A DNA stretch of 47,372 nucleotides from Eledone cirrhosa (Eukaryota): positions 1-47,372 of the forward strand of contig CAXHJY010000367.1 of NCBI GenBank assembly GCA_964016885.1. The letters are read 5' to 3'. A program made the translations under genes and the position numbers. The notes beneath the pieces are model-generated. The model worked only from the letters and a program-made list of their open reading frames with translations. It was not told the origin of the DNA and searched no databases. How positions within the stretch are numbered: position 1 is the first letter of the stretch; each line of letters opens with the position of its first letter. Shown here in pieces: positions 5,437 to 47,372 of this stretch.

Positions 5437-6982
5437 CTGTGGCGGAACTCACTAGATGCTGGATATGTGCCAGAAAACCTTCTATCCCAGTCTGTTGTCC
5501 CAGTTTTCAAAAAGGGAAACAAATCCCTTGCCGTGAATTACCGTCCAATCTCACTCACCTCTCATATCATTAAGGTATTTGAGCGAGTGGTGAGATCGCG
5601 AATGACCCACTTCCTTGAGAGTAACAATATGCTGAACTCCAACCAGCATGGATTCCGTAATGGAAGGGATTGCCTGACGCAACTACTGCATCACTTTGAT
5701 GACATTTTGAGAGCCTTGGGAGAGAGTTCCAACACTGATGTTATCTACCTTGATTTCAGCAAGGCCTTTGACAGGGTTGATCATAACATTCTACTGAGAA
5801 AGCTGTCCAATATTGGTGTCACTGGAAAGCTGCTGCAGTGGATCAAGAGCTTCCTGTCAAACAGAACCCAACATGTTGTAGTTGAGGGAGTCAAATCAAG
5901 CCAGCCAAAGTCAGTAGTGGAGTCCCACAAGGCACTGTGTTGGGCCCACTTCTCTTCATCATCTATATTAATGACATCACTGACATCATCAAACACAGCA
6001 ACATTAACATTTTCGCTGATGATTCCAAGCTCCAAAAGGTCATCAATGGCGTGGATGACCGGATAAGCCTTCAGTCAGACCTACTGGCTGTTACCCAATG
6101 GGCAGAAAAGAACAACATGTTACTGAACGAAGACAAATTCGAACTGATCCACTTTGGAAAAGAGGATGCTCTGAAACTCCCGTACTCCCCTTCCCTCCGG
6201 GGAAACTCTCGTGGCATCTAACAACATCAGAGACTTGGGAGTAACCGTGGACAGCAACATAAGCTGGACCACGCATATAAGCAGCAAAGTTGACATGGCC
6301 CGCAGAATGTGTTCCTGATCCTCAGAACCTTCCAGTCGAGAGATTCCCGCACCATTATCCTTCTCTTCTCTACTTTCGCCCGACCACACCTTGAATACTG
6401 TTGTCCACTGTGGTCTCCCACACGAAACAAAGTATCATGAAACTTGAAGCTCCTCAAAGGGCAATCACGAAAAAGATAGATGGCATGTCAGACTTGACTA
6501 CTGGGTCGATTGGAAAACCTGAAACTTTACTCACTCCAACGTCGCCGTGAGCGTTATATTATCTGCATGATGTGGAAAATGTTCCATCATCACTGCCCAA
6601 ATGATGTTGGCATCGCCTTCAAGATACACCCAAGGCTTGGGCCCCGTGCTATCCGTCCCATTCAAAAATCTAAATCGCAACTCATAACAACAATACGGCA
6701 CAATTATTTCACCTCAATCGGCCCTGCTCTCTTCAACATCACACCAGGACACGTCAAAACAGAAACTGACCACACAAAATTCAAGAAGTCTTTGGACAAA
6801 TTCCTCCAAGTAATCCGGACAAACCACCCACACCCGGATATGTCTCCGCAAACAATAATTCTCTTCTCGAATGGGCCATGGTGCCCAAATCCTGAATTGA
6901 AAGACTTCGCCAGGTGGTGCTATTAAGTTAGACATGGCCTGGGCCAATACTGGCCAAAACATTTCAAAGTTATTCAAAGTTA
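5437..6982 (+). mobile_element. 5'-truncated, frameshifted CR1-clade LINE (reverse transcriptase and 3' end)
   Basis: RT motifs spread over several frames: [68 protein letters not shown], then RPHLEYCCPLWSP and LYSLQRRRER. Ends in a short tandem tail (TTCAAAGTTA)x2 joined to (TA)n. Confidence 0.92.
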
Positions 6983-6989
6983 TATATAC

Positions 6990-7038
<49 letters not shown>

Positions 7039-7175: not shown

Positions 7176-7783
7176 GTCAGGTCACCAGTTGGTGCTACTG
7201 GTAACATGTATCCCAGTACAACCTGTCCCATGGTCGGGTCGTTGGCGACTAAACTGGCAACCCCACCAAGGTTTCTTGGTGAGGAGGGTGACTTTGGACA
7301 TCCTGCAGGACTAAAAACAAAACCTGTCAAAGGGCAAAGGAGCTCTTAAGAGTCAATAGCCATCCAAAATCACCGGGAGAGATGACCCCTTAGCCTTTGT
7401 CAAGGCAGAATTCTAGGAGAAGGAAAACTCTGATATAACACCTGCAACCCTGATGGTATCCAATGATGTTGACTTGTTCTTCTTTTTGGTAAATATCATC
7501 TTTGTTAAGAGAGTGGGACTGGCTTTGTGCAGTGCCTTTGCTCACTATAAAAGCTTCACGGCACAGGCATTGCTTTATATCTGGAGATCTCTCTGCACTT
7601 GTCGTCACATGGTACCATGGGCCCAGCACTATGTGTCAGTAATTGTCACAAGTGTAGTGTTTGTACCAGAGTTTTCAAGTCGCTGGCTGGACTAAAAAGT
7701 CACACGCGTTCAGCGCATCGGTAGGGGTTCTCCTACATGGATATAAAGTAGTGGCCGTACTCGAAAACGAGTTGGCAGCCACC
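7176..7783 (+). mobile_element. Short non-autonomous RTE-derived element (5'UTR-like part fused to an RTE 3' end)
   Basis: Contains CTAGGAGAAGGAAAACTCTGA (~7413-7433), a motif I recall from RTE 5'UTRs. 7653-7724 encodes [23 protein letters not shown], the C-terminal C2H2 finger typical of RTE ORFs. A short hairpin CTCG-AAAA-CGAG precedes the 3' end. Flanked by (TA)n on both sides. Confidence 0.65.
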
Positions 7784-15098: not shown

Positions 15099-15148
<50 letters not shown>

Positions 15149-15187
15149 GTCTCTGTGTGTGTGTGTGTGTGTTTATACATATATACA

Positions 15188-15543
15188 TACTCTGGGGGGG
15201 GGGGGATAATAGGGGGAGATGGAAAAAGCGGTGTGGGGAAAATCGGTAATTTTTCTAGATTTTTTTAACAAATCAGAACTAGTTGTTTAGTTTACATATT
15301 GAGAACCCCCAACCCATTATATTCATTTGATAACGTATGGGATTTCTAGTAACATAATTGTTTGTCATGTATAATGTTTTTTTTATATCTGAAGAAAATG
15401 AATTGTCGCAGGAATGCTACGACTTAAAATAAAATTTCACCGGCTATGCATAAGCAACATTTAATAAGCAGGGGCTGATTGGTGGAAAAATCGGATAATT
15501 TTATAAGCGGGGGCACGGGGTGATTATTCCAGACCCGACAGTA
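15188..15543. mobile_element. Possible degenerate MITE (TA-flanked DNA transposon relic)
   Basis: Left TACTCTGGG...GGATAAT versus right-end reverse complement TACTGTCGGGTCTGGAATAAT. Confidence 0.3.
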
Positions 15544-16068: not shown

Positions 16069-16422
16069 TTTTGCGAGGTTTTTGATATATGTGTATGTAT
16101 GTATATGTATATGTATATATGTATGTATATGTGTATGTATATATATATATGTATATGTGTATGTATGTATATATGTGTATGTATATATATATGTATGTAT
16201 ATATGTATATATATACATATATACATATATATATATACATACACATATATACATACATACACATATATCATACATACACATATACATATATATATATATA
16301 CATACACATATACATACATATATACATGTATATATATATACATATATATATACCAAACAGTGAGTGTGTTCTGTTATTAATTCTGGCAATATTGTTACAC
16401 AAATATGACCCTCCCCAAGTAT

Positions 16423-16500
<78 letters not shown>

Positions 16501-17232: not shown

Positions 17233-18192
17233 ATGTGTGTGTGTGTGTGTGTGTGTGTTTTGCATGTGTATATGTGTGTGTATGTGTAAGTAAATGATGA
17301 TGTCTGTTTGCACGTGCCTATTAGAGAGTGTATGCGTGTGTGACGTGTGAGTACACGCGCGTATTTCAATTGTTTTGACATATAATTTAGTTTGTTATGA
17401 AAAGTAGTTACTTTATATTTAGTGCTATCTATTTCAAACATTTTTGACACACAGTCTTGTATTTTAAACTCACCTCCCTACACCATTCAAGAAGTTGCTT
17501 GTTATGTCTGTTTTATTTTTAAATGTACACAGTCAACATTTGATATCTTCTCTGTATTAAAGCACCACATTTCAAAACCTTTTTTATTGATTCAAATTGT
17601 TTAATCCAACAGATCAACCAACCTTAGCTGCTACTTTTTGCAGATCGGGTGATTACGCAAGGGTTCCTTTCTGGCTTTTTTCGCGTTTGATAAACTTAAA
17701 TTGGGTGCAATAAACAGGGTATCTCACGACCTGTTAGGAATAGCAGACAACTTACCCACAACTCACATTCCTGTGGTCTATTTAACAAAGAAAGGCACAT
17801 TGGAGAATGTAGCTCTAGACATACAATATGATGATTACAGATGAAAGCCTTTGATTAAAGGTTTGCTTGATCAGCGTTGATATGACGCTAAACGATAACA
17901 ACAAATAACAGCAACAAGGAAATATAGGAATTATCAATAGAAAATTATATATATCTTCCTTCATATCTACATCTGATCCTGTTTGTTGTATCCACATGGC
18001 GTCAGCATGAGACATTTTAGAACTTTAGAAATGAAGTTATTGTTTTAAGCAACTTACAATATATTATTTACGTGTTAAATTGAATAAATTACAATGAATA
18101 AAATGAAATAGAAACAAATGATTATTGAATCAATGACAGTTCAACGTAGGGTAGTGATTAAGATGAGAATTAGAGAAAAATATCTAACTCAC

Positions 18193-19294
18193 CTTTGTCC
18201 AAATTCGTAATGTTTTCTTCATGACCCTCATTTGCCGTAAGTAATTTATCCGTTTCGAATATGAATGATTTTACATAAAATTGGCGTAAAACAAGTTCTA
18301 CAAACATTTTCTTGGCAAACTCCAGCCAATACCCATCTTTGTTACTAATGATGACTAGATGTTGCCAATGGTAGTGATCAAATATGAGACTCAGTGCCTT
18401 AACTATTTGTGAAATCTTAGGCACCAAGCTGATCATATGTGGTGTTCTGACATCTCGAACGATAACATCACCGTTTGCTGCGATATAGGGTTTTTGCCAT
18501 AGAGGAGCTAAGCTCAGAACATTGTGGTAAAAATCCTCCTGAGGAACTCGTATATCCTCTATGCTCCAGATATCAAAAACCTCTTTGTTTCCAGATTTTT
18601 CGTCCTGTTGAGGATACAAGTTTTTCCAATGTTGGTTACGATCAACATATCTTAATGGCAATTGCTGTCGTTTTGGCAAGCTGAGCACGATACAAGTTCC
18701 GGGATCTTGGAATAATTTATAAAGGGCTAAATCTGGTCTTTCAATAACATCTATATTGCCCCTCTCTCGGCTCTTTACATGGTTTTCGCAGAAAGTGCGC
18801 CATTTAAACGAAAACTTTTGGGTTGTCTTTTTAATTTTCAAATTAAATAATTTTGAAGAGTTCACTGCTATTTTATTTATGGCAGGAGCTGTCGGGGACG
18901 GTGAAAGCGTATACTGCATTTGGCTAGCCATTTTTTCGGTCCAGTTTTTAATATTCTCTAATAATGTCTGATTACAGAAATATGGGTCCGGCAAAATAAT
19001 TGCCAAAGTTGTGCTGTCTAAAGCGTTAGGAAACTGTGAAGAGTGAACAGCATGTGGGAGGAGAGAAGGCTTATCGAAAGACAGAGTTGACCGATTCTGT
19101 GTTTGCTTGTTTGGGGATGGTGTACCCAGGAACTCATTGCTGTTTAAAGCTGAAATATTGCTTTTGAAAACAGAAAACAAAACCATAACAGCGAACGTCC
19201 ATAGAAAATTAGACTGGTGGAACCTGTACTCGACTCGGATATTACGAACCGAGTGTTTTCCCACTGAATGTGGCTGTGTTGATAATGCAAACAT
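18193..19294 (-). CDS. Large (probably first) coding exon of a secreted or membrane receptor with an ANF-receptor/periplasmic-binding-protein-like ectodomain (receptor guanylyl cyclase-like)
   Basis: Only long, normal-complexity, uninterrupted non-TE ORF in the window. ATG at 19294; hydrophobic signal-like segment FLWTFAVMVLFSVF; several N-x-S/T sites; motif IVKALSLIFDHYHWQHLVIISNKDGYW resembles the ANF_receptor 'll..f.W..v.ii' pattern; strong donor AAAG|GTGAGT at 18193/18192 (phase 1). Family assignment is by eye. Confidence 0.7.
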
Positions 19295-20109
19295 TTCATT
19301 CTGTTTGGGAGGGAAACAAGTCAGGATTTTGTAATATTCCTGTCCTCCTGTTCACAGAAGGCCTGTTATTTTCATTATTTTCCTCCTTCTCATCCTTTTT
19401 TGATTCTCATTCCCTTGTGCTCTCCGACATATATACACTCACACATACCCTTTCTCCCGCTTTCCCTCTCTTTCTTTCTCAACCACCTCGCATTCAGTCT
19501 GCCTGTCTGTTTCACACTCCCCTTCACTCGCTCTTTCTATTCCACTTTACTATTTACTTCTGCTTCCTGCTCTTCAGTTAGCTACTCTTTATTATTTTAT
19601 TTTATTGTTCTTTTTCTTTCTTTCTCTTCCTCCCTTCCTCCCACTTTCTCTTTTCTCCGTGTGTGTTTTTTTATCTTCTTTCTCTCCCCCTTAGTCTATT
19701 GCTATGGTTATCTAGTCAGCCAGGCAAAACAGCCGCTATGGTAGTAACAGGTAAGAAAATACTTTCGGAAAAGTCTTCAGTTGAACGTTAACGTAAGTCT
19801 CGTCCGTCACAAACGACCGGTTCAGGTGAAATAGAAAAAAAGAGTACATACAGGAAAATACCAAATTAAATTTCCTAGATGTATTGAAAAGACAGTGCTG
19901 TTTATTTTTCCTTGCGCAGATATGGAACTTGAGGACTTGAGACTTTATATTATTTTTTTTTAATGCCTGCATATCAGAAGATGCGAAGCCCGTGCCATTT
20001 CTATGGGCATTAGTGATAGAAGCGACATTGTGTTGTTCCAAGCCGGAATCCAAATACAATACAACACGTTAATAACAAACCAGCCAACAATAACATCAAC
20101 AGCAGAAAA

Positions 20110-27452: not shown

Positions 27453-27456
<4 letters not shown>
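25743..27456 (+). mobile_element. Decayed Penelope-like element (PLE) 3' region: GIY-YIG endonuclease remnant, repeat-rich 3'UTR/pLTR and hammerhead
   Basis: Frame-broken peptides in the expected order: GY*KF, VSTAPK, EAIPIS, NSVVYIF (from 26167), SNRVLNRRVK, KKINWSIAR, EPEL. These resemble PLE linker/GIY-YIG motifs (NGYP.KF, VP.K, KD.LP, S.VVY.F, T.R.L..R, INSSI..HL, KP.L). A canonical HHR follows at 27354-27424. Internal direct repeats: 25743-25902/26326-26485, a 73-bp dimer at 26557-26705, and a ~220-bp dimer from 26836/27056. Confidence 0.55.
27354..27424 (+). ncRNA. Type I hammerhead ribozyme, family C (PLE-associated)
   Basis: Stem I UGUUUUAU/AUAAAAUA; CUGAUGA 27362-27368; 16-bp stem II (15/16 paired) with GCAU loop; GAAA 27405-27408; palindromic stem III AUGCGCAU; predicted AUA cleavage after 27416. 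Confidence 0.85.
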
Positions 27457-27526
<70 letters not shown>

Positions 27527-27659
27527 TATATATATATATATATAGATATATAGATATAGATATATATAGAGATATATATATATATATAGAGATATATATA
27601 TATATATAGAGATATATATATATATATATATAGAGAGAGATATAGAGAGATATATATAT

Positions 27660-27722
<63 letters not shown>

Positions 27723-27934
27723 TATATATATATATATATATATATAGATATATATATATATATATATATATAGATATAGATATATATATATATATATATA
27801 TATATAGATATATATATATATATATATATAGATATATATATATATATATATATATATAGATATAGATATATATATATATAGATATAGATATATATATATA
27901 TATATATATATATAGATATATATATATCTATATA

Positions 27935-27970
<36 letters not shown>

Positions 27971-27996
27971 TATATAGATATATATATAGATATATA

Positions 27997-28058
<62 letters not shown>

Positions 28059-28179
28059 TATATATATCTATATATCTATATATCTATATATATATATATA
28101 TATATATATAGATATATAGATATATATATATATATATATCTATATATATATATATATATATATATATAGATATATAGAT

Positions 28180-28214
<35 letters not shown>

Positions 28215-28248
28215 TATATATAGATATATATATCTATATATCTATATA

Positions 28249-28282
<34 letters not shown>

Positions 28283-28308
28283 TATATAGATATATATATA
28301 GATATATA

Positions 28309-28345
<37 letters not shown>

Positions 28346-28369
28346 ATATATATATATATATATATATAT

Positions 28370-28402
<33 letters not shown>

Positions 28403-28482
28403 TATATATATATATATATAGAGATATATATATATATATATAGAGATATATATATATATATCTATATATATATATATATATA
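27457..28482. repeat. (TA)n microsatellite with TAGA/TCTA interruptions
   Basis: Direct inspection. Confidence 0.97.
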
Positions 28483-28518
28483 TATTATTATTATGTAATA
28501 AACAACATAAGGCAATTA

Positions 28519-28578
28519 TTCCATTTACCAGTGGTTTCTTAAAAGCAAAAGGTTTTGCTTTCAATCCTCAGAATGAAA
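28519..28578 (-). ncRNA. Type I hammerhead ribozyme, family B (mirror copy)
   Basis: Exact reverse complement of 28680-28739. Confidence 0.78.
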
Positions 28579-28679
28579 AATCCTGGTTTGTTTATTGAAT
28601 ATGGATTCTAAAAACAAGAATGCAATCATAGATTGCATTTTTGTTTTTAGAATCCATATTCAATAAACAAACCAGGATT

Positions 28680-28739
28680 TTTCATTCTGAGGATTGAAAG
28701 CAAAACCTTTTGCTTTTAAGAAACCACTGGTAAATGGAA
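28680..28739 (+). ncRNA. Type I hammerhead ribozyme, family B
   Basis: Stem I UUUCAUU/AAUGGAA, with distal AAUAAACAA/UUGUUUAUU pairing; CUGAGGA 28687-28693; 11-12-bp stem II UUGAAAGCAAA/UUUGCUUUUAA; GAAA 28720-28723; stem III ACC-acu-GGU; predicted GUA cleavage after 28732. Confidence 0.78.
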
Positions 28740-28840
28740 TAATTGCCTTATGTTGTTTATTACATAATAATAATAATTAAGCTCTGTTGCATACATAGAG
28801 CACTCTTTTTTCCTGGACTTTTCCGATGGAATTACTTCAT

Positions 28841-29830
28841 ATATATATATATATATATAGATATAGATATATATATATATATCTATATATATATATATAT
28901 ATATATATAGATATATATATAGATATATATATATATATCTATATATCTATATATATATATATATATATATATCTATATATCTATATATATATATATATAT
29001 ATAGATATATATATAGATATATATATATATATCTATATAGATATATATATATATATAGATATATATATATATATAGATATATATATATATATCTATATAT
29101 CTATATATATATATATAGATATATATATATATATAGATATATATATATATATCTATATAGATATATATATATATATAGATATATATATATATATAGATAT
29201 ATATATATATATCTATATATATATATATATAGATATATATATATATATCTATATATCTATATATATATATATAGATATATATATATATATAGATATATAT
29301 ATATATAGATATATATATATATATAGATATATATATATATAGATATATATCTATATATATATATATAGATATATATCTATATATATATATATATATATAG
29401 ATATATATCTATATATATATATATAGATATATATCTATATATATATATAGAGATATATATCTATATATATATATAGAGATATATATCTATATATATATAT
29501 AGAGATATATATCTATATATATATATATATATAGATATATATCTATATATATATATATAGATATATATCTATATATATATATAGAGATATATATCTATAT
29601 ATATATATAGAGATATATATCTATATATATATATAGAGATATATATCTATATATATATATAGAGATATATATCTATATATATATATAGAGATATATATCT
29701 ATATATATATAGAGATATATATCTATATATATATAGAGAGATATATATCTATATATATATAGAGAGATATATATCTATATATATATAGAGAGATATATAT
29801 ATATATATAGAGAGATATATATATATAGAG

Positions 29831-29861
<31 letters not shown>

Positions 29862-29880
29862 TATATATATATATATATAT

Positions 29881-29929
<49 letters not shown>

Positions 29930-30134
29930 TATATATATATATATATATGTATAGATATATATATATATATATATATAGATATATATATATATAGATATAT
30001 ATAGATATATATATATATATATATATAGATATATATATATATATATAGATATATATATATATATATATAGATATATATATATATATATATAGATATATAT
30101 ATATATATATAGATATATATATATATATATATAG

Positions 30135-30207
<73 letters not shown>

Positions 30208-30385
30208 TATATATAGATATATATATAGATATATATATATCTATATATATATATCTATATATATATATCTATATATATATAGAGATATATATATATATAG
30301 AGATATATATATATCTATATATATATATCTATATATATATATCTATATATATATATCTATATCTATATATATATATCTATATATC

Positions 30386-30432
<47 letters not shown>

Positions 30433-30568
30433 ATATATATATATCTATATATCTATATATCTATATATATATATATCTATCTATATATTTATATCTATAT
30501 ATCTATATATCTATATATATATATAGATATATATAGATATATAGATAAATATATATATATAGATATAT
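28841..30568. repeat. (TA)n/TAGA/TCTA microsatellite with a ~26-bp higher-order unit at ~29330-29800
   Basis: Repeating AGAGATATATATCTATATATATATAT-like unit. Confidence 0.93.
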
Positions 30569-30985
30569 AATTAAGTTAAAAATGTACATCCACATATGTA
30601 TACTGAAATACTAGTATGCATATGAATACACACACGTGTACATATGTAGATGTACCGAGTTTTCACTGGTCACTTTACTGTGAGTGTCCAGCTATTCTGT
30701 ATGTAGACACACAGACAAACCGGTTCTTAGAGTCATACTGGTTTTTGAGGAAACACCTTTCCTGTATTCTCCAGAAAGCCAGACAAGGAATATTGGACTA
30801 GTTTCGATGTTGTTACATCTCATCAGCAATATTTACCTATCTTCCGGCTTCTCTAGAGAATCGTGAAAGCACATATCGTTATATGCTTTTTCTATGAAAA
30901 TTAGTAGTGGGCAGACCAATTTGCACAGAGCGTGAGTACGTACCGGTTCAACGGAGACGATAAAAACAAATAACGAAACGAAATT
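30569..30985 (-). mobile_element. Inverted partial copy of the 465-bp retrozyme unit (left arm of the 835-bp palindrome 30569-31403)
   Basis: Reverse complement of 30987-31403 about axis 30986; one mismatch seen (30764/31208). Confidence 0.95.
30789..30833 (-). ncRNA. Type I hammerhead ribozyme, family A (inverted copy)
   Basis: Reverse complement of 31139-31183. Confidence 0.9.
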
Positions 30986-31138
30986 TAATTTCGTTTCGTT
31001 ATTTGTTTTTATCGTCTCCGTTGAACCGGTACGTACTCACGCTCTGTGCAAATTGGTCTGCCCACTACTAATTTTCATAGAAAAAGCATATAACGATATG
31101 TGCTTTCACGATTCTCTAGAGAAGCCGGAAGATAGGTA

Positions 31139-31183
31139 AATATTGCTGATGAGATGTAACAACATCGAAACTAGTCCAATATT
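31139..31183 (+). ncRNA. Type I hammerhead ribozyme, family A, unit 1
   Basis: Stem I AAUAUUG/CAAUAUU (extended by 31112-31136 pairing with 31184-31205); CUGAUGA; stem II GAUGU-aaca-ACAUC; GAAA; palindromic stem III ACUAGU; predicted GUC cleavage after 31176. Confidence 0.92.
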
Positions 31184-31603
31184 CCTTGTCTGGCTTTCTG
31201 GAGAATAGAGGAAAGGTGTTTCCTCAAAAACCAGTATGACTCTAAGAACCGGTTTGTCTGTGTGTCTACATACAGAATAGCTGGACACTCACAGTAAAGT
31301 GACCAGTGAAAACTCGGTACATCTACATATGTACACGTGTGTGTATTCATATGCATACTAGTATTTCAGTATACATATGTGGATGTACATTTTTAACTTA
31401 ATTGTTTAAGCGTCAGTCATACAAAAGTGAGTTACAAACGAAACGAAATTTAATTTCGTTTCGTTATTTGTTTTTATCGTCTCCGTTGAACCGGTACGTA
31501 CTCACGCTCTGTGCAAATTGGTCTGCCCACTACTAATTTTCATAGAAAAAGCATATAACGATATGTGCTTTCACGATTCTCTAGAGAAGCCGGAAGATAG
31601 GTA

Positions 31604-31648
31604 AATATTGCTGATGAGATGTAACAACATCGAAACTAGTCCAATATT
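31604..31648 (+). ncRNA. Type I hammerhead ribozyme, family A, unit 2
   Basis: Identical to unit 1; cleavage after 31641. Confidence 0.92.
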
Positions 31649-32068
31649 CCTTGTCTGGCTTTCTGGAGAATAGAGGAAAGGTGTTTCCTCAAAAACCAGT
31701 ATGACTCTAAGAACCGGTTTGTCTGTGTGTCTACATACAGAATAGCTGGACACTCACAGTAAAGTGACCAGTGAAAACTCGGTACATCTACATATGTACA
31801 CGTGTGTGTATTCATATGCATACTAGTATTTCAGTATACATATGTGGATGTACATTTTTAACTTAATTGTTTAAGCGTCAGTCATACAAAAGTGAGTTAC
31901 AAACGAAACGAAATTTAATTTCGTTTCGTTATTTGTTTTTATCGTCTCCGTTGAACCGGTACGTACTCACGCTCTGTGCAAATTGGTCTGCCCACTACTA
32001 ATTTTCATAGAAAAAGCATATAACGATATGTGCTTTCACGATTCTCTAGAGAAGCCGGAAGATAGGTA

Positions 32069-32113
32069 AATATTGCTGATGAGATGTAACAACATCGAAA
32101 CTAGTCCAATATT
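32069..32113 (+). ncRNA. Type I hammerhead ribozyme, family A, unit 3
   Basis: Identical to unit 1; cleavage after 32106. Confidence 0.92.
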
Positions 32114-32533
32114 CCTTGTCTGGCTTTCTGGAGAATAGAGGAAAGGTGTTTCCTCAAAAACCAGTATGACTCTAAGAACCGGTTTGTCTGTGTGTCTACA
32201 TACAGAATAGCTGGACACTCACAGTAAAGTGACCAGTGAAAACTCGGTACATCTACATATGTACACGTGTGTGTATTCATATGCATACTAGTATTTCAGT
32301 ATACATATGTGGATGTACATTTTTAACTTAATTGTTTAAGCGTCAGTCATACAAAAGTGAGTTACAAACGAAACGAAATTTAATTTCGTTTCGTTATTTG
32401 TTTTTATCGTCTCCGTTGAACCGGTACGTACTCACGCTCTGTGCAAATTGGTCTGCCCACTACTAATTTTCATAGAAAAAGCATATAACGATATGTGCTT
32501 TCACGATTCTCTAGAGAAGCCGGAAGATAGGTA

Positions 32534-32578
32534 AATATTGCTGATGAGATGTAACAACATCGAAACTAGTCCAATATT
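32534..32578 (+). ncRNA. Type I hammerhead ribozyme, family A, unit 4
   Basis: Identical to unit 1; cleavage after 32571. Confidence 0.92.
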
Positions 32579-32998
32579 CCTTGTCTGGCTTTCTGGAGAA
32601 TAGAGGAAAGGTGTTTCCTCAAAAACCAGTATGACTCTAAGAACCGGTTTGTCTGTGTGTCTACATACAGAATAGCTGGACACTCACAGTAAAGTGACCA
32701 GTGAAAACTCGGTACATCTACATATGTACACGTGTGTGTATTCATATGCATACTAGTATTTCAGTATACATATGTGGATGTACATTTTTAACTTAATTGT
32801 TTAAGCGTCAGTCATACAAAAGTGAGTTACAAACGAAACGAAATTTAATTTCGTTTCGTTATTTGTTTTTATCGTCTCCGTTGAACCGGTACGTACTCAC
32901 GCTCTGTGCAAATTGGTCTGCCCACTACTAATTTTCATAGAAAAAGCATATAACGATATGTGCTTTCACGATTCTCTAGAGAAGCCGGAAGATAGGTA

Positions 32999-33043
32999 AA
33001 TATTGCTGATGAGATGTAACAACATCGAAACTAGTCCAATATT
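32999..33043 (+). ncRNA. Type I hammerhead ribozyme, family A, unit 5
   Basis: Identical to unit 1; cleavage after 33036. Confidence 0.92.
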
Positions 33044-33463
33044 CCTTGTCTGGCTTTCTGGAGAATAGAGGAAAGGTGTTTCCTCAAAAACCAGTATGAC
33101 TCTAAGAACCGGTTTGTCTGTGTGTCTACATACAGAATAGCTGGACACTCACAGTAAAGTGACCAGTGAAAACTCGGTACATCTACATATGTACACGTGT
33201 GTGTATTCATATGCATACTAGTATTTCAGTATACATATGTGGATGTACATTTTTAACTTAATTGTTTAAGCGTCAGTCATACAAAAGTGAGTTACAAACG
33301 AAACGAAATTTAATTTCGTTTCGTTATTTGTTTTTATCGTCTCCGTTGAACCGGTACGTACTCACGCTCTGTGCAAATTGGTCTGCCCACTACTAATTTT
33401 CATAGAAAAAGCATATAACGATATGTGCTTTCACGATTCTCTAGAGAAGCCGGAAGATAGGTA

Positions 33464-33508
33464 AATATTGCTGATGAGATGTAACAACATCGAAACTAGT
33501 CCAATATT
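33464..33508 (+). ncRNA. Type I hammerhead ribozyme, family A, unit 6
   Basis: Identical to unit 1; cleavage after 33501. Confidence 0.92.
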
Positions 33509-33802
33509 CCTTGTCTGGCTTTCTGGAGAATAGAGGAAAGGTGTTTCCTCAAAAACCAGTATGACTCTAAGAACCGGTTTGTCTGTGTGTCTACATACAG
33601 AATAGCTGGACACTCACAGTAAAGTGACCAGTGAAAACTCGGTACATCTACATATGTACACGTGTGTGTATTCATATGCATACTAGTATTTCAGTATACA
33701 TATGTGGATGTACATTTTTAACTTAATTGTTTAAGCGTCAGTCATACAAAAGTGAGTTACAAACGAAACGAAATTTAATTTCGTTTCGTTATTTGTTTTT
33801 AT

Positions 33803-36638
<2,836 letters not shown>

Positions 36639-37165
36639 ATAATGTAGGAGGTGAGTTTTATTGTAGTACAATAAAGCAATGCAGATATCGGATAAGAAGC
36701 ACTCTACAGTTTGTGGGACTGGAGTATGCATAATATAAGATCAAAAGATGGTTAAAGGAGTTCCATATATTTTATTATGCGCATTTCAAAAACAAACATC
36801 ATCAAGCAATAATATCTGTGTTTTCATCAGATAAAACAGGAGAACATGATATGAAGGCTAAAAAACACTTGTTGATAGTGCAGTTTTAAATCAACATACG
36901 AAAATGGTTTTAGATTGATGTGTGATATTGGGAAAAATATTTTATCTAGAGAGGGGGGGGAGGATGAAAAGGTAAGGAGACGAGAGGGAGAGATGGGCGA
37001 CAGAGAAAAAGAGATAGTTTCCACAACTGAGAGGAGACATATTTTTTACACAGAGGGGTTGAAAACGCTGGAAGATACTGTATGAATTAAAATTTTGAAA
37101 ATTAACGAAGGGAGGATATGTGCGAGGAAAAAATATTTCATTTAGGGAGGGGGGGTGGAAAGGAA
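36639..37165 (-). mobile_element. PLE pLTR-like HHR cassette (family C), inverted copy 1
   Basis: Diverged reverse-complement homologue of ~27019-27456, extending ~95 bp further at its 3' end. Confidence 0.8.
36768..36838 (-). ncRNA. Type I hammerhead ribozyme, family C
   Basis: Minus strand: UGUUUUAU CUGAUGA aaacacagauauuauu-gcuu-gaugauguuuguuuuu GAAA UGCGC AUA^AUAAAAUA; cleavage at 36776/36775. Confidence 0.85.
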
Positions 37166-39956
<2,791 letters not shown>

Positions 39957-40485
39957 ATAATGTAGGAGGTGAGTTTATTGTAGTACAATAAAGCAATGCA
40001 GATATCGGATAAGAAGCACTCTACAGTTTGTGGGACTGGAGTATGCATAATATAAGATCAAAAGATGGTTAAAGGAGTTCCATATATTTTATTATGCGCA
40101 TTTCAAAAACAAACATCATCAAGCAATAATATCTGTGTTTTCATCAGATAAAACAGGAGAACATGATATGAAGGCTAAAAAACACTTGTTGATAGTGCAG
40201 TTTTAAATCAACATACGAAAATGGTTTTAGATTGATGTGTGATATTGGGAAAAATATTTTATCTAGAGAGGGGGGGGGGGGATGAAAAGGTAAGGAGACG
40301 AGAGGGAGAGATGGGCGACAGAGAAAAAGAGATAGTTTCCACAACTGAGAGGAGACATATTTTTTACACAGAGGGGTTGAAAACCGCTGGAAGATACTGT
40401 ATGAATTAAAAATTTTGAAAATTAACGAAGGGAGGATATGTGCGAGGAAAAAATATTTCATTTAGGGAGGGGGGGTGGAAAGGAA
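39957..40485 (-). mobile_element. PLE pLTR-like HHR cassette (family C), inverted copy 2
   Basis: Near-identical to 36639-37165, with the same two breakpoints. Confidence 0.8.
40085..40155 (-). ncRNA. Type I hammerhead ribozyme, family C
   Basis: Identical to 36768-36838; cleavage at 40093/40092. Confidence 0.85.
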
Positions 40486-45477
<4,992 letters not shown>

Positions 45478-47372
45478 TTTCTTTTATTTGCCACTAGGGC
45501 ATCAAAAGTGGGACAAGTACAAAGGGGGGAGTTTACACAAAAAGGCGTCCTCAATAAGGAGGAGGCAATAACAAAATATAAAAATAAAATAAGATATAAC
45601 AAAAAATAAAATTTTTAACAAAATCCTCAATAGAGAGGAGGCGCCTTGGGGGGTCGCACACACCCCCGAAAAAAGTGTGCAACCCTTCTCCTCAGGAGCA
45701 CAGAGAAGGGGTGCTCCCTTGGTCTTTCATCTTCCTCACCTATAGTCTGATGTAGAGTGAAGGCCCATTCACACGGGCCATTCTCGCCACTTTCACCCAT
45801 CTTTCATAGAAACGGCTGGGGTGCAGCACCTCTCTCTCCATCCTGATCCTTCTTCCGAAATGATATCGGAAGAAACGGACCAGTTGTTGGCCAGAGAGAA
45901 AGGTGCCCGACCTCAGTCCTTTCAGACGTGTCCACCATACAACCTCTTTCGCCATGGCTATTACGCACAGAAACACCGCCTCTGCTTCATCTTTGAAGGG
46001 GGGAGGCGGCTTGATCATTACAATAGACTCGGTGGTCAACCGGATCGGTCCCACCCTTGACAGCAGTTGTTCGACATAGCCCCACAGATCGGCTACGCCC
46101 GAGCAGTGTACTAATGCGTGTGCAACGGTTTCCTCGTCGCACACGCATCTGGGACAGATCTTTTGGCGGGGTCCCTACCCGGGCGCCCGTGTCTGTAGAG
46201 CCTTTCTCGAACGGGTAAAGCCCCTCGGTAGCACTGCCAGGCCAGGGACTTCTGGAAGTTGTCCATAGGTCCCGGCTGAATGTCCTACCGAAAAGGCTGG
46301 CCAGTTCGTCCTCCTCCATGTCTAGGGCTTCTCCGAGGGCGTCGTCGCACCTGCTGCGTACCAGCCCTCTATAGAATGTTGCGGTGGAGTCTCCACTGAT
46401 AACCGGATCCGCCTGCCAGAGGGCGGTGAGCGCCTGGGCACACTCAGTGTGCCAGGCGCCCAGTTTTCTCGGTCTTTGCTTGACCCAGGATTGCAGCTCG
46501 GTGAGTGAGACGAGTCTGGGAAAGGTTCGTCTCACAAACGAGGCCCACACCGGTTGTCCGGTGAGGAATACGTAGAGGTGCCGTAGCCTTAATGCGTGTT
46601 TACGCATCATTAGCCACGGCATCCCCAGCCCTCCTTTCGAAGGGTGTTGACAGCAGATGGATCTCCTCACCATAGGAGCCCGCCTCTTCCAAAGGAATTG
46701 GAAGAGCGCGCGCTCCATCTTGGTGAGGGTTTCCCTTGGGCAGGGCACTACGGTCAGGCGGTAGTAGATGACGGACGCTATGTAGGTGTTCGCCACCTCC
46801 GCCCGACCTTTCAGGGATAGTTTGCAACTGGCCCACTTCTGGGTCAGTGCAAACACTCTGTTCGTAACCTCCGCCCAGTTTTTCTCCACCTGGAGGTCCG
46901 GTCCGAACCAGACCCCGAGCAACTTCACCGGGCCCTCCGTCCAGCGTCCGACGACGCTATCGGAGGGCATCGGTCTGCCCCTCCACGTGCCGAGTTGCAA
47001 ACCGATCGACTTGTCCCGGTTCAGCTTAGCCCCTGTGAACTTTTCGTACTCCTCCAGTAAGGTGCCGACCGCCTCGATTTCGGAGGCCGTCGACACCATT
47101 ACTGTCACGTCATCGGCGTAGGCCGACACCGCTTTCCGCAATCCCGGTTCCAAAGGGATGCCCTGCAACAACTCCAACTTCCGCAGTAGTGGCTCGAGAG
47201 TCAATACATACAGAAGGGAGGAGAGAGGGCACCCTTGTCGGATGGACCGCGCGATTTTGAACGGCTCCGAGAGGTAGCCGTTCACCTTGACCCTAGAGCA
47301 GATGCGGCTGCTGTGCATAGCAGTGATCCAGCCCCTGAAAACGGGTCCGAAGGGTAACCATGGTCGACCCTA
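45478..47372 (-). mobile_element. Tx1/L1-clade LINE, 3' half (RT, C-terminal CCHC finger, 3'UTR); frameshifted and truncated by the window edge
   Basis: RSIRQGCPLSSLLYVLTLEPL, AYADDVT, LNRDKS, VKLLGVWF, LSLKGRA, KGGLG; in another frame CPRCECDEETVAHALVHC, with stop at 45740. AATAAA at 45488-45483 lies directly before the junction with (TA)n. Short deletion between RVDHGY and FGP near 47352. Confidence 0.9.

Follow-up and report, generated by a model that had tools for sequence, protein, structure and literature searches.

How does a tandem, non-coding ribozyme repeat return to its genome? The question is raised by a locus in Eledone cirrhosa contig CAXHJY010000367.1 (assembly GCA_964016885.1), whose 47,372 nucleotides, the entire 47-kb contig and mostly (TA)n, are called the window here. 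The original prediction had described a simple one-direction array of six identical, non-coding units of 465 bp, every one with a full type I hammerhead, as a retrozyme that borrows a reverse transcriptase (RT), possibly that of a Penelope-like element (PLE). The units themselves are as described: exact 465-bp periodicity extends over 30972-33802 (6.09 units) with 0 differences among the six units, the hammerhead motif is present in every unit, and non-coding character is borne out by 5-11 stops per unit in all six frames and a longest ATG open reading frame (ORF) of 61 aa. The layout departs from that description, as a 417-bp inverted arm lies directly upstream, and the full insertion, 30569-33802, consists of two head-to-head arms, with a PLE-type tail and with (TA)n on either flank. 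This anatomy recurs at the dispersed loci of what we call family A, and we consider it very likely that family A is mobilised by a PLE.

A two-armed insertion with fixed ends

Unit base 1 corresponds to window position 30972, which places the hammerhead cleavage C at unit base 205. We use E1 and E2 for two ends that recur among the loci; the names PLE-A, Neptune-B and PLE-D and those of families A and B are likewise working labels. The features of the locus are as follows:

27455-30568: left (TA)n-rich target
30569-30985, minus strand: inverted arm, 0.9 unit, with its RNA-sense 3' end at unit base 432 (E1), fused to (TA)n
30773-30844, minus strand: seventh hammerhead, within the inverted arm, cleavage C 30796
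30972-33802, plus strand: direct arm, 6.09 identical 465-bp units, with its 3' end at unit base 41 (E2), fused to (TA)n
30972-31000: 13-bp tail hairpin, here also the head-to-head junction of both arms, centre 30986
31046-31053, plus strand: octamer-like motif in a conserved hairpin
31139-31183, plus strand: type I hammerhead of unit 1, with stem I 31139-45/31177-83, core 31146-52, stem II 31153-66, GAAA 31167-70 and a CUAG loop; cleavage after C31176; recurring every 465 bp
31177-31641, plus strand: predicted 465-nt monomer or circle, with a branched, highly paired fold (z -9.6 vs shuffles)
31404-31477, plus strand: PLE-type tail between E1 and E2, 69-74 nt; terminal copy 33729-33802
33803-45478: right (TA)n-rich target

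The inverted arm runs from unit base 432 down to approximately 16, with one mismatch (30764 vs 31208). The unit has a GC content of 37%, under the 50% typical of animal non-LTR (long terminal repeat) retrozymes, and in a six-frame reading it encodes no RT-endonuclease ORF, so that it is not an autonomous PLE.

Fifty loci were mapped: the window, 19 that gave the best hits, and every locus, 30 in a row, within the part of contig C1 that was listed first. Arms below 100 bp were excluded from terminus counts, and L038, L046 and L051 from arm-length counts. Among 86 arm 3' ends, 44 fell at unit base 40-42 (E2; 42 of them exactly at 41), 39 at 429-437 (E1) and 3 elsewhere, and (TA)n adjoined 79. 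Thirty-five of 36 two-armed loci had one E1 and one E2 end with the arms head-to-head; two further loci outside the 50 agreed with this pattern, and in contigs from run X1 loose ends in TA coincided with E1 and E2 (31403, 31408 and 31477). Arm 5' ends varied freely in position, and arm lengths within a locus were weakly correlated (rho 0.33, p 0.056). Among arms longer than one unit, the 5' ends of E1 arms lay mostly at unit bases 187-279 (14/30, p 0.003, with post hoc bins) and those of E2 arms at 373-465 (13/32, p 0.06). The 36 head-to-head junctions comprised 23 overlaps of 1-50 bases (BLAST-extension estimates), 3 flush joints and 10 with 1-29 filler bases. At L055:3050-4150, a family-A arm ending at unit base 30 abuts a palindromic element of another family, with no TA between them.

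PLEs are characterized by an inverted, 5'-truncated copy, a one-sided tail of 30-40 bp and a bias towards microsatellites (PMC8557442, PMC3846280), and the corresponding features of family A are the inverted 5'-truncated copy with one-sided tail at 35/36 loci and the microsatellite bias of 79/86 ends. For the Anolis PLE, whose protein is predicted to form a dimer, two internal RT start sites bound the tail, and both target strands were nicked and extended in vitro (PMC11167929). Because fixed E1 and E2 ends, a TA target and an inverted arm occur together as they do in PLEs, the insertions appear to be of PLE type, with E1 and E2 best read, by this analogy, as the two RT start sites.

The 38-nt hammerhead core has 1,558 exact matches (733+825) in the animal's own 3.0-Gb genome and 0 in the control, many of them in near-identical arrays that lie on different contigs; the family is dispersed and recently active. 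Dispersed units with type I hammerheads define an animal non-LTR retrozyme, and family A is a young member of this known class. Members of this class lack LTRs, a primer-binding site and a polypurine tract, and their target duplications, when present, exceed 4 bp. In family A, inspection of the layout of the mapped loci found no LTR arrangement, and a target duplication was seen once (12 bp, L059), being unreadable where the target is (TA)n. The length of 465 nt had been considered unusual, which does not hold against published ranges of 51-972 bp (bioRxiv 10.64898/2026.07.22.740005) and 150-450 bp (PMC7229834). An artefact of assembly, or a satellite confined to one locus, is an extremely improbable explanation: the window is a complete contig, mostly (TA)n, and the copy number of this one array is that of the assembly, but the same architecture stands on many chromosome-scale contigs with different junctions and an independent run has identical ends, which refutes this explanation for the family. 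The 27-kb stretch G000:C1:95642500-95669400 holds a diverged array of family A, traced to one of its ends and comprising at least 58 units, which likely expanded after insertion.

A sister family, B, aligns with the greater part of the family A unit, scoring 139-188 where shuffles reach 52 at most, and accounts for 27,147 matches of a 20-nt motif, with a repeat spacing mostly of 420-540 bp. Its copies (stretches L143-L154 and L093-L104) have a GUA cleavage triplet, a U-U mismatch at the base of stem II and an internal TA tract of variable length, and their ends are paired as in family A, 59 nt apart.

Neptune-B as candidate partner

Four autonomous PLE families were examined: PLE-A, Neptune-B, PLE-D and a Hydra-like family, which is older than the other three. 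Neptune-B is young (40/40 full-length matches are ~100% identical) and abundant (30,851 motif matches), and it is two-armed in TA with a tail of 62 nt, compared to 59 nt in family B and 69-74 nt in family A. Its protein is 65% identical to that of PLE-A and has a linker zinc finger and C-terminal GIY-YIG motifs; in the one copy read from end to end, it is divided between two overlapping frames. Inspection of the L167 and L085 ORFs by eye showed motifs of the Neptune/Nematis clade as PMC8557442 describes them, and a Pfam search of the L085 ORF gave no match. PLE-A has open frames of ~1,200 aa, a hammerhead-like motif, a 46/60-nt tail and 14,051 motif matches, and its protein found no match in a PDB search. 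PLE-D (L127-L134) is very young and 4.7 kb long, with two overlapping frames (455 and 784 aa) and a 39-nt tail, and a canonical hammerhead was not seen in it. Both PLE-A and PLE-D are young, two-ended and TA-targeting; short end fragments of the two lie in the window at 16352-16430 and 15105-15190.

Two insertions join family A to Neptune-B. In L031, an 8.6-unit retrozyme E2 arm is head-to-head with a 5'-truncated Neptune-B arm that is 99.7% identical to a young copy. In L182/L185, the Neptune-B arm (1.2 kb) stops at its own E1 in TA46 and meets a retrozyme arm of 1.9 units whose E2 end lies in TA26, keeping the one-E1-one-E2 rule across two different RNAs; this insertion (L185:900-2201) sits just upstream of an exon for a C2H2 zinc-finger array. 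The junction sample comprised the 50 loci and 15 informative stretches, 2 of 17 junction stretches (L168 and L173) having fallen short of the junction. A suspected family-B/Neptune-B hybrid at C1:5.41 Mb turned out not to be one. The retrozyme E2 end is antisense to the last 21 nt of Neptune-B at 18/21 positions, within the last 25 nt of the tail, a match found in 0/1000 shuffles and the best among 14 PLE-type ends compared. Judged from these sequences, the paired ends, the TA target and the two hybrids support the predicted loan of a PLE RT, and Neptune-B is probably the main partner.

Several points weigh against this assignment. The two hybrids are the only ones among approximately 10 junctions to foreign non-TA sequence, the others leading to a co-linear long interspersed nuclear element (LINE; L047), a Hydra-like PLE (L170), a small element (L055), and simple repeats or unassigned sequence. 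The L031 contig ends before the 3' end of its Neptune-B arm, deletion could also yield such hybrid joints, and the chance probability of the hybrids, 0.003-0.03, assumes that Neptune-B makes up 1-3% of local DNA. Neither 24 stretches of family B nor a single targeted test yielded a hybrid. The terminal antisense test is post hoc, an 18/21 match at any position of the 4.2-kb element is obtained with 3/30 shuffled units, and the family B end has no antisense match to Neptune-B (13/21, p 0.4). Homology to the pseudo-long terminal repeat (pLTR) was not found by blastn against PLE-A, PLE-D and the Hydra-like family, and around the Neptune-B hammerhead and eleven other hammerhead contexts local alignments stayed near the shuffled range (one score of 56 vs a shuffled maximum of 60, a few 4-11 points above their own shuffled maximum, compared to 139-188 for family B). 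A high score at L039 was rejected, being produced by a neighbouring retrozyme copy. Unlike the frog retrozymes, for which a pLTR-derived origin has been proposed, family A appears to act like a PLE passenger whose descent from a pLTR is unsupported among the PLE families compared; a pLTR relative among unsampled PLE families is possible.

The main carrier might instead be PLE-A, with its 65% identical protein, PLE-D, with its 784-aa frame, or an unsampled family, the hybrids then being deletions or products of occasional cross-use. That PLE-A and PLE-D share youth, two ends and TA targeting, that PLE-A combines its 46/60-nt tail with thousands of motif matches and that the autonomous families compared number just four all favor such a carrier, which we nevertheless consider rather unlikely since Neptune-B takes part in both head-to-head hybrids and in the sole strong terminal complementarity.

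Ribozyme, template and proposed mechanism

Cleavage after the C residues at 31176, 31641, 32106, 32571, 33036 and 33501 would release the five exact 465-nt monomers that had been predicted. An Rfam search at gathering level gave no match in the array, while with E-values Hammerhead_HH9 scored 38.9 bits (E 4.4e-8) against a gathering threshold of 52 in each of the three copies scanned. The Rfam check proposed for the original prediction thus gave a sub-threshold hammerhead match, and RF00163 itself was absent from a list in which two overlapping same-clan matches had been suppressed. Helix III consists of a single A-U pair and a palindromic CUAG tetraloop and has a pair probability of 0.0 in the predicted circular fold, compared to 0.65-1.0 for stems I and II, and five hammerhead stem pairs are altered on both sides between families A and B, essentially one comparison. 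Because both arms point outward, transcription in the sense direction requires a promoter inside the element or read-through that begins in a flank. The octamer-like motif, ATGCAAAT in 311 copies at other sampled loci and GTGCAAAT in the window's 7 copies, is kept in family A and most family B copies, the count being 311 intact and 7 altered, all seven in the window. It is a possible promoter element, and the hairpin structure could account for its conservation instead. Newt satellite 2 has an snRNA (small nuclear RNA)-type promoter with an octamer upstream of its hammerhead; the position of the family A motif is similar.

The cleavage site is crossed by 74 of 78 arms, 12 of which are shorter than one unit and hence too short to stem from unequal exchange, and arm 5' ends are not enriched at the cut (4/70, 3.2 expected). 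The crossing and the lack of a 5'-end pile-up exclude a cut linear monomer as the usual template. Allele tables were made for 45 loci, five of the 50 (C1_95.6, L038, L046, L061 and L062) having been dropped because they showed internal jumps, were hard to align or had an end that was not reached. In 18 testable loci, the two arms agree at 6,834 of 6,835 sites. Fourteen alleles unique to one sampled locus are present in both of its arms, at 11 loci, with 23 more in the distant L064; the window's own G at unit base 75 is one of these single-locus alleles. Over 3-8 kb, the youngest arrays differ at 0-1 sites, the young arms of L047, L042 and L037 showing 0/5150, 0/5790 and 1/6087, respectively. 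Single-locus fixed transitions were A>G/T>C in 11 vs 5 cases with L064 omitted and 19 vs 14 with it included, compared to 35 vs 70 among variants within arrays (Fisher p 0.011); since fixed A>G and T>C are equal (6 and 5), they are not strand-specific as regards adenosine-to-inosine editing written into the genome. Closed contigs of 495/496 nt, one each in runs X4 and X5, were not used as RNA evidence because tandem DNA gives the same shape.

The agreement of arm haplotypes fits rolling-circle copying of one circle or of sister circles, and we lean slightly towards a circular template in most events. Of the rolling-circle reverse transcription of a circular RNA in the original prediction, read-through of the cut site is seen in the genomic arms, and the circle is plausible, an uncut multimer being the alternative. 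Some observations run counter to a single circle: the arms of L070 differ at one site, and the "private" alleles of L107 recur on C21. It is possible, and to our judgement somewhat less probable than a circle, that the same PLE enzyme copies a long uncut or partly cut linear multimer, the arrays being extended by unequal exchange after insertion and the circle serving as a by-product or storage form. The weak helix III would fit such a template, as would three variants common to both arms at the same repeat index (L068 and L052) and block-duplicated variants in the old long arrays C1_69.5 and C1_117.9, which likewise count against a single circle. Unprocessed RNA is moreover the main substrate of the Anolis PLE and hammerhead mutants still insert (PMC11167929), and 8/9 frog dimers were uncleaved in vitro (bioRxiv 10.64898/2026.07.22.740005). 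Yet young arms of 5.2-5.7 kb with 0-1 differences would need transcripts with more than 10 uncut ribozymes, run-off is not seen either at a cut end or at one of the start sites, 69 differences do not recur at the same repeat index of the other arm, and the stem pairs are maintained by compensatory change.

The inverted arm could also arise by fold-back self-priming on an antisense template or complementary DNA (cDNA), as in the model of PMC3846280, without a second target-primed reverse transcription. The window junction, a perfect palindrome at the tail hairpin, would agree with this origin, and L067 and L114 also join there. We regard it as improbable, given that most of the 36 junctions join 5' ends at unrelated unit positions, that either arm may be the longer and both exceed one unit in 20/35 loci, and that hybrids with a different RNA cannot come from fold-back.

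Altogether, a non-autonomous retrozyme that borrows a Neptune/Nematis-type PLE protein, most likely that of Neptune-B, is the likely explanation of what is seen in the genome, i.e., a TA target, head-to-head arms that end at two fixed points and extend through the ribozyme site, signs of recent activity, and hybrids. A point against it is that the evidence consists of genomic DNA; that the arrays are transcribed, cleaved by dimeric ribozymes and circularised, that the enzyme is a dimer, and which PLE is the main partner are inferred. As in its relatives, arrays would be transcribed and the hammerheads, probably as dimers, would release 465-nt monomers to be closed by a host ligase. By analogy with the Anolis PLE, a dimer of the RT-endonuclease would bind the tail region and nick both strands of (TA)n, the target seen in the genome, and the two DNA 3' ends would then prime reverse transcription at two internal sites ~70 nt apart, which correspond to the fixed genomic ends. 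Both reverse transcriptions would read through the ribozyme site, often several times, on a presumably circular template, and the two cDNA ends would be joined head-to-head at variable points by microhomology or short filler, as the junctions suggest. The primers would usually sit on the same or sister RNAs, and occasionally one would sit on the PLE's own RNA, giving a retrozyme-PLE hybrid. A more speculative form, to which we give limited credence, is that a viroid-sized circular RNA not descended from the helper's terminal repeat captures the helper: its tail end would pair with or mimic the tail helix of Neptune-B RNA, the dimeric enzyme would start two reverse transcriptions ~70 nt apart, strand displacement would yield two head-to-head concatemers in (TA)n, and hybrids would form when one subunit is left on PLE RNA.

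Other elements and known systems

At 18170-19351 on the minus strand, the window holds a 393-aa open frame that resembles an ANF-receptor ligand-binding region and is probably an exon of a receptor gene. Broken LINE-type RT frames lie at ~5450-7000 (plus strand) and 45740-47369 (minus strand), and end pieces of the first recur near 7700 and 11250. A 0.5-kb sequence is duplicated 3.3 kb apart inside the TA tract (~36640-37180 and ~39960-40500), by local duplication or as an assembly effect. A second, short head-to-head palindromic element in TA at ~28490-28860, with a hammerhead-like motif per arm and ends 66 nt apart, is probably what is left of another insertion of PLE type. Sampled loci (L048, L050, L055, L064, L065, L067, L088 and L090) also contain at least six more families of small hammerhead-like elements; several are two-armed in TA, and the L090 family has an octamer upstream.

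The re-entry of retrozymes into the genome has so far been inferred, with PLEs named from co-occurrence or pLTR homology, and tandem hammerhead repeats were described as bearing no motif that reveals their partner (PMC7761336). Family A provides exact predicted start sites, a target, a young candidate enzyme and hybrids that link both; with these specified, the in vitro assay already published for PLEs makes the whole cycle testable, rolling-circle reverse transcription of a natural circle included. In the literature searched, which did not extend to Repbase or Dfam, we found no published paired PLE ends or PLE hybrids for a retrozyme; the further invertebrate retrozymes in the supplement of PMC7229834 may include this family or a relative.

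The animal non-LTR retrozymes of coral, mussel and axolotl are expressed, low-GC, tandem non-coding units (PMC7229834). Family A resembles them in these units, in the type I hammerhead of each, and in the highly paired fold with an accessible ribozyme, and its helix III matches that of axolotl HHR_Amex1, which has one pair and a palindromic tetraloop and is active as a dimer (PMC7229834). It differs in that RNA expression was demonstrated for them while family A is known here from DNA, and the main text of that paper describes neither insertions with two inverted arms nor a pair of fixed internal ends nor a named partner. Li, Clavereau and Pollet (2026; bioRxiv 10.64898/2026.07.22.740005) likewise reported retrozymes of similar lengths that depend on PLEs, from co-occurrence and pLTR homology in 35 species (31 vertebrates, 3 insects and 1 coral). 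The case for family A, which has no pLTR homology to the compared PLEs, rests instead on the insertion footprint and hybrids.

Non-autonomous PLEs of the Chlamys MRC1 type are also non-coding passengers with multicopy head-to-tail insertions, but their 3' end resembles the autonomous partner and most Chlamys elements lack a hammerhead (PMC8557442), whereas family A has a canonical hammerhead and an antisense match only. With endonuclease-positive (EN+) PLEs (PMC8557442, PMC3846280) and Anolis Poseidon (PMC11167929), family A shares head-to-head arms, a one-sided tail, a (TA)n target and variable 5' truncation. Its tail of 69-74 nt exceeds the published 30-40 nt, the local Neptune-type PLEs having 46-62 nt, and unlike EN+ PLEs it has no ORF and arms many units long.

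In LINE-1 twin priming, two target ends prime on one RNA, giving a 5' inversion; in family A, the position of the second priming site is constant. As to how the inverted-plus-tail structure of PLEs arises, the paired ends and the hybrids favor two target-primed reverse transcriptions over fold-back. Compared to these systems, the class, the length and the link to PLEs are already in print, and what family A adds is the anatomy of the insertion, the start sites and the hybrids that name a candidate enzyme.

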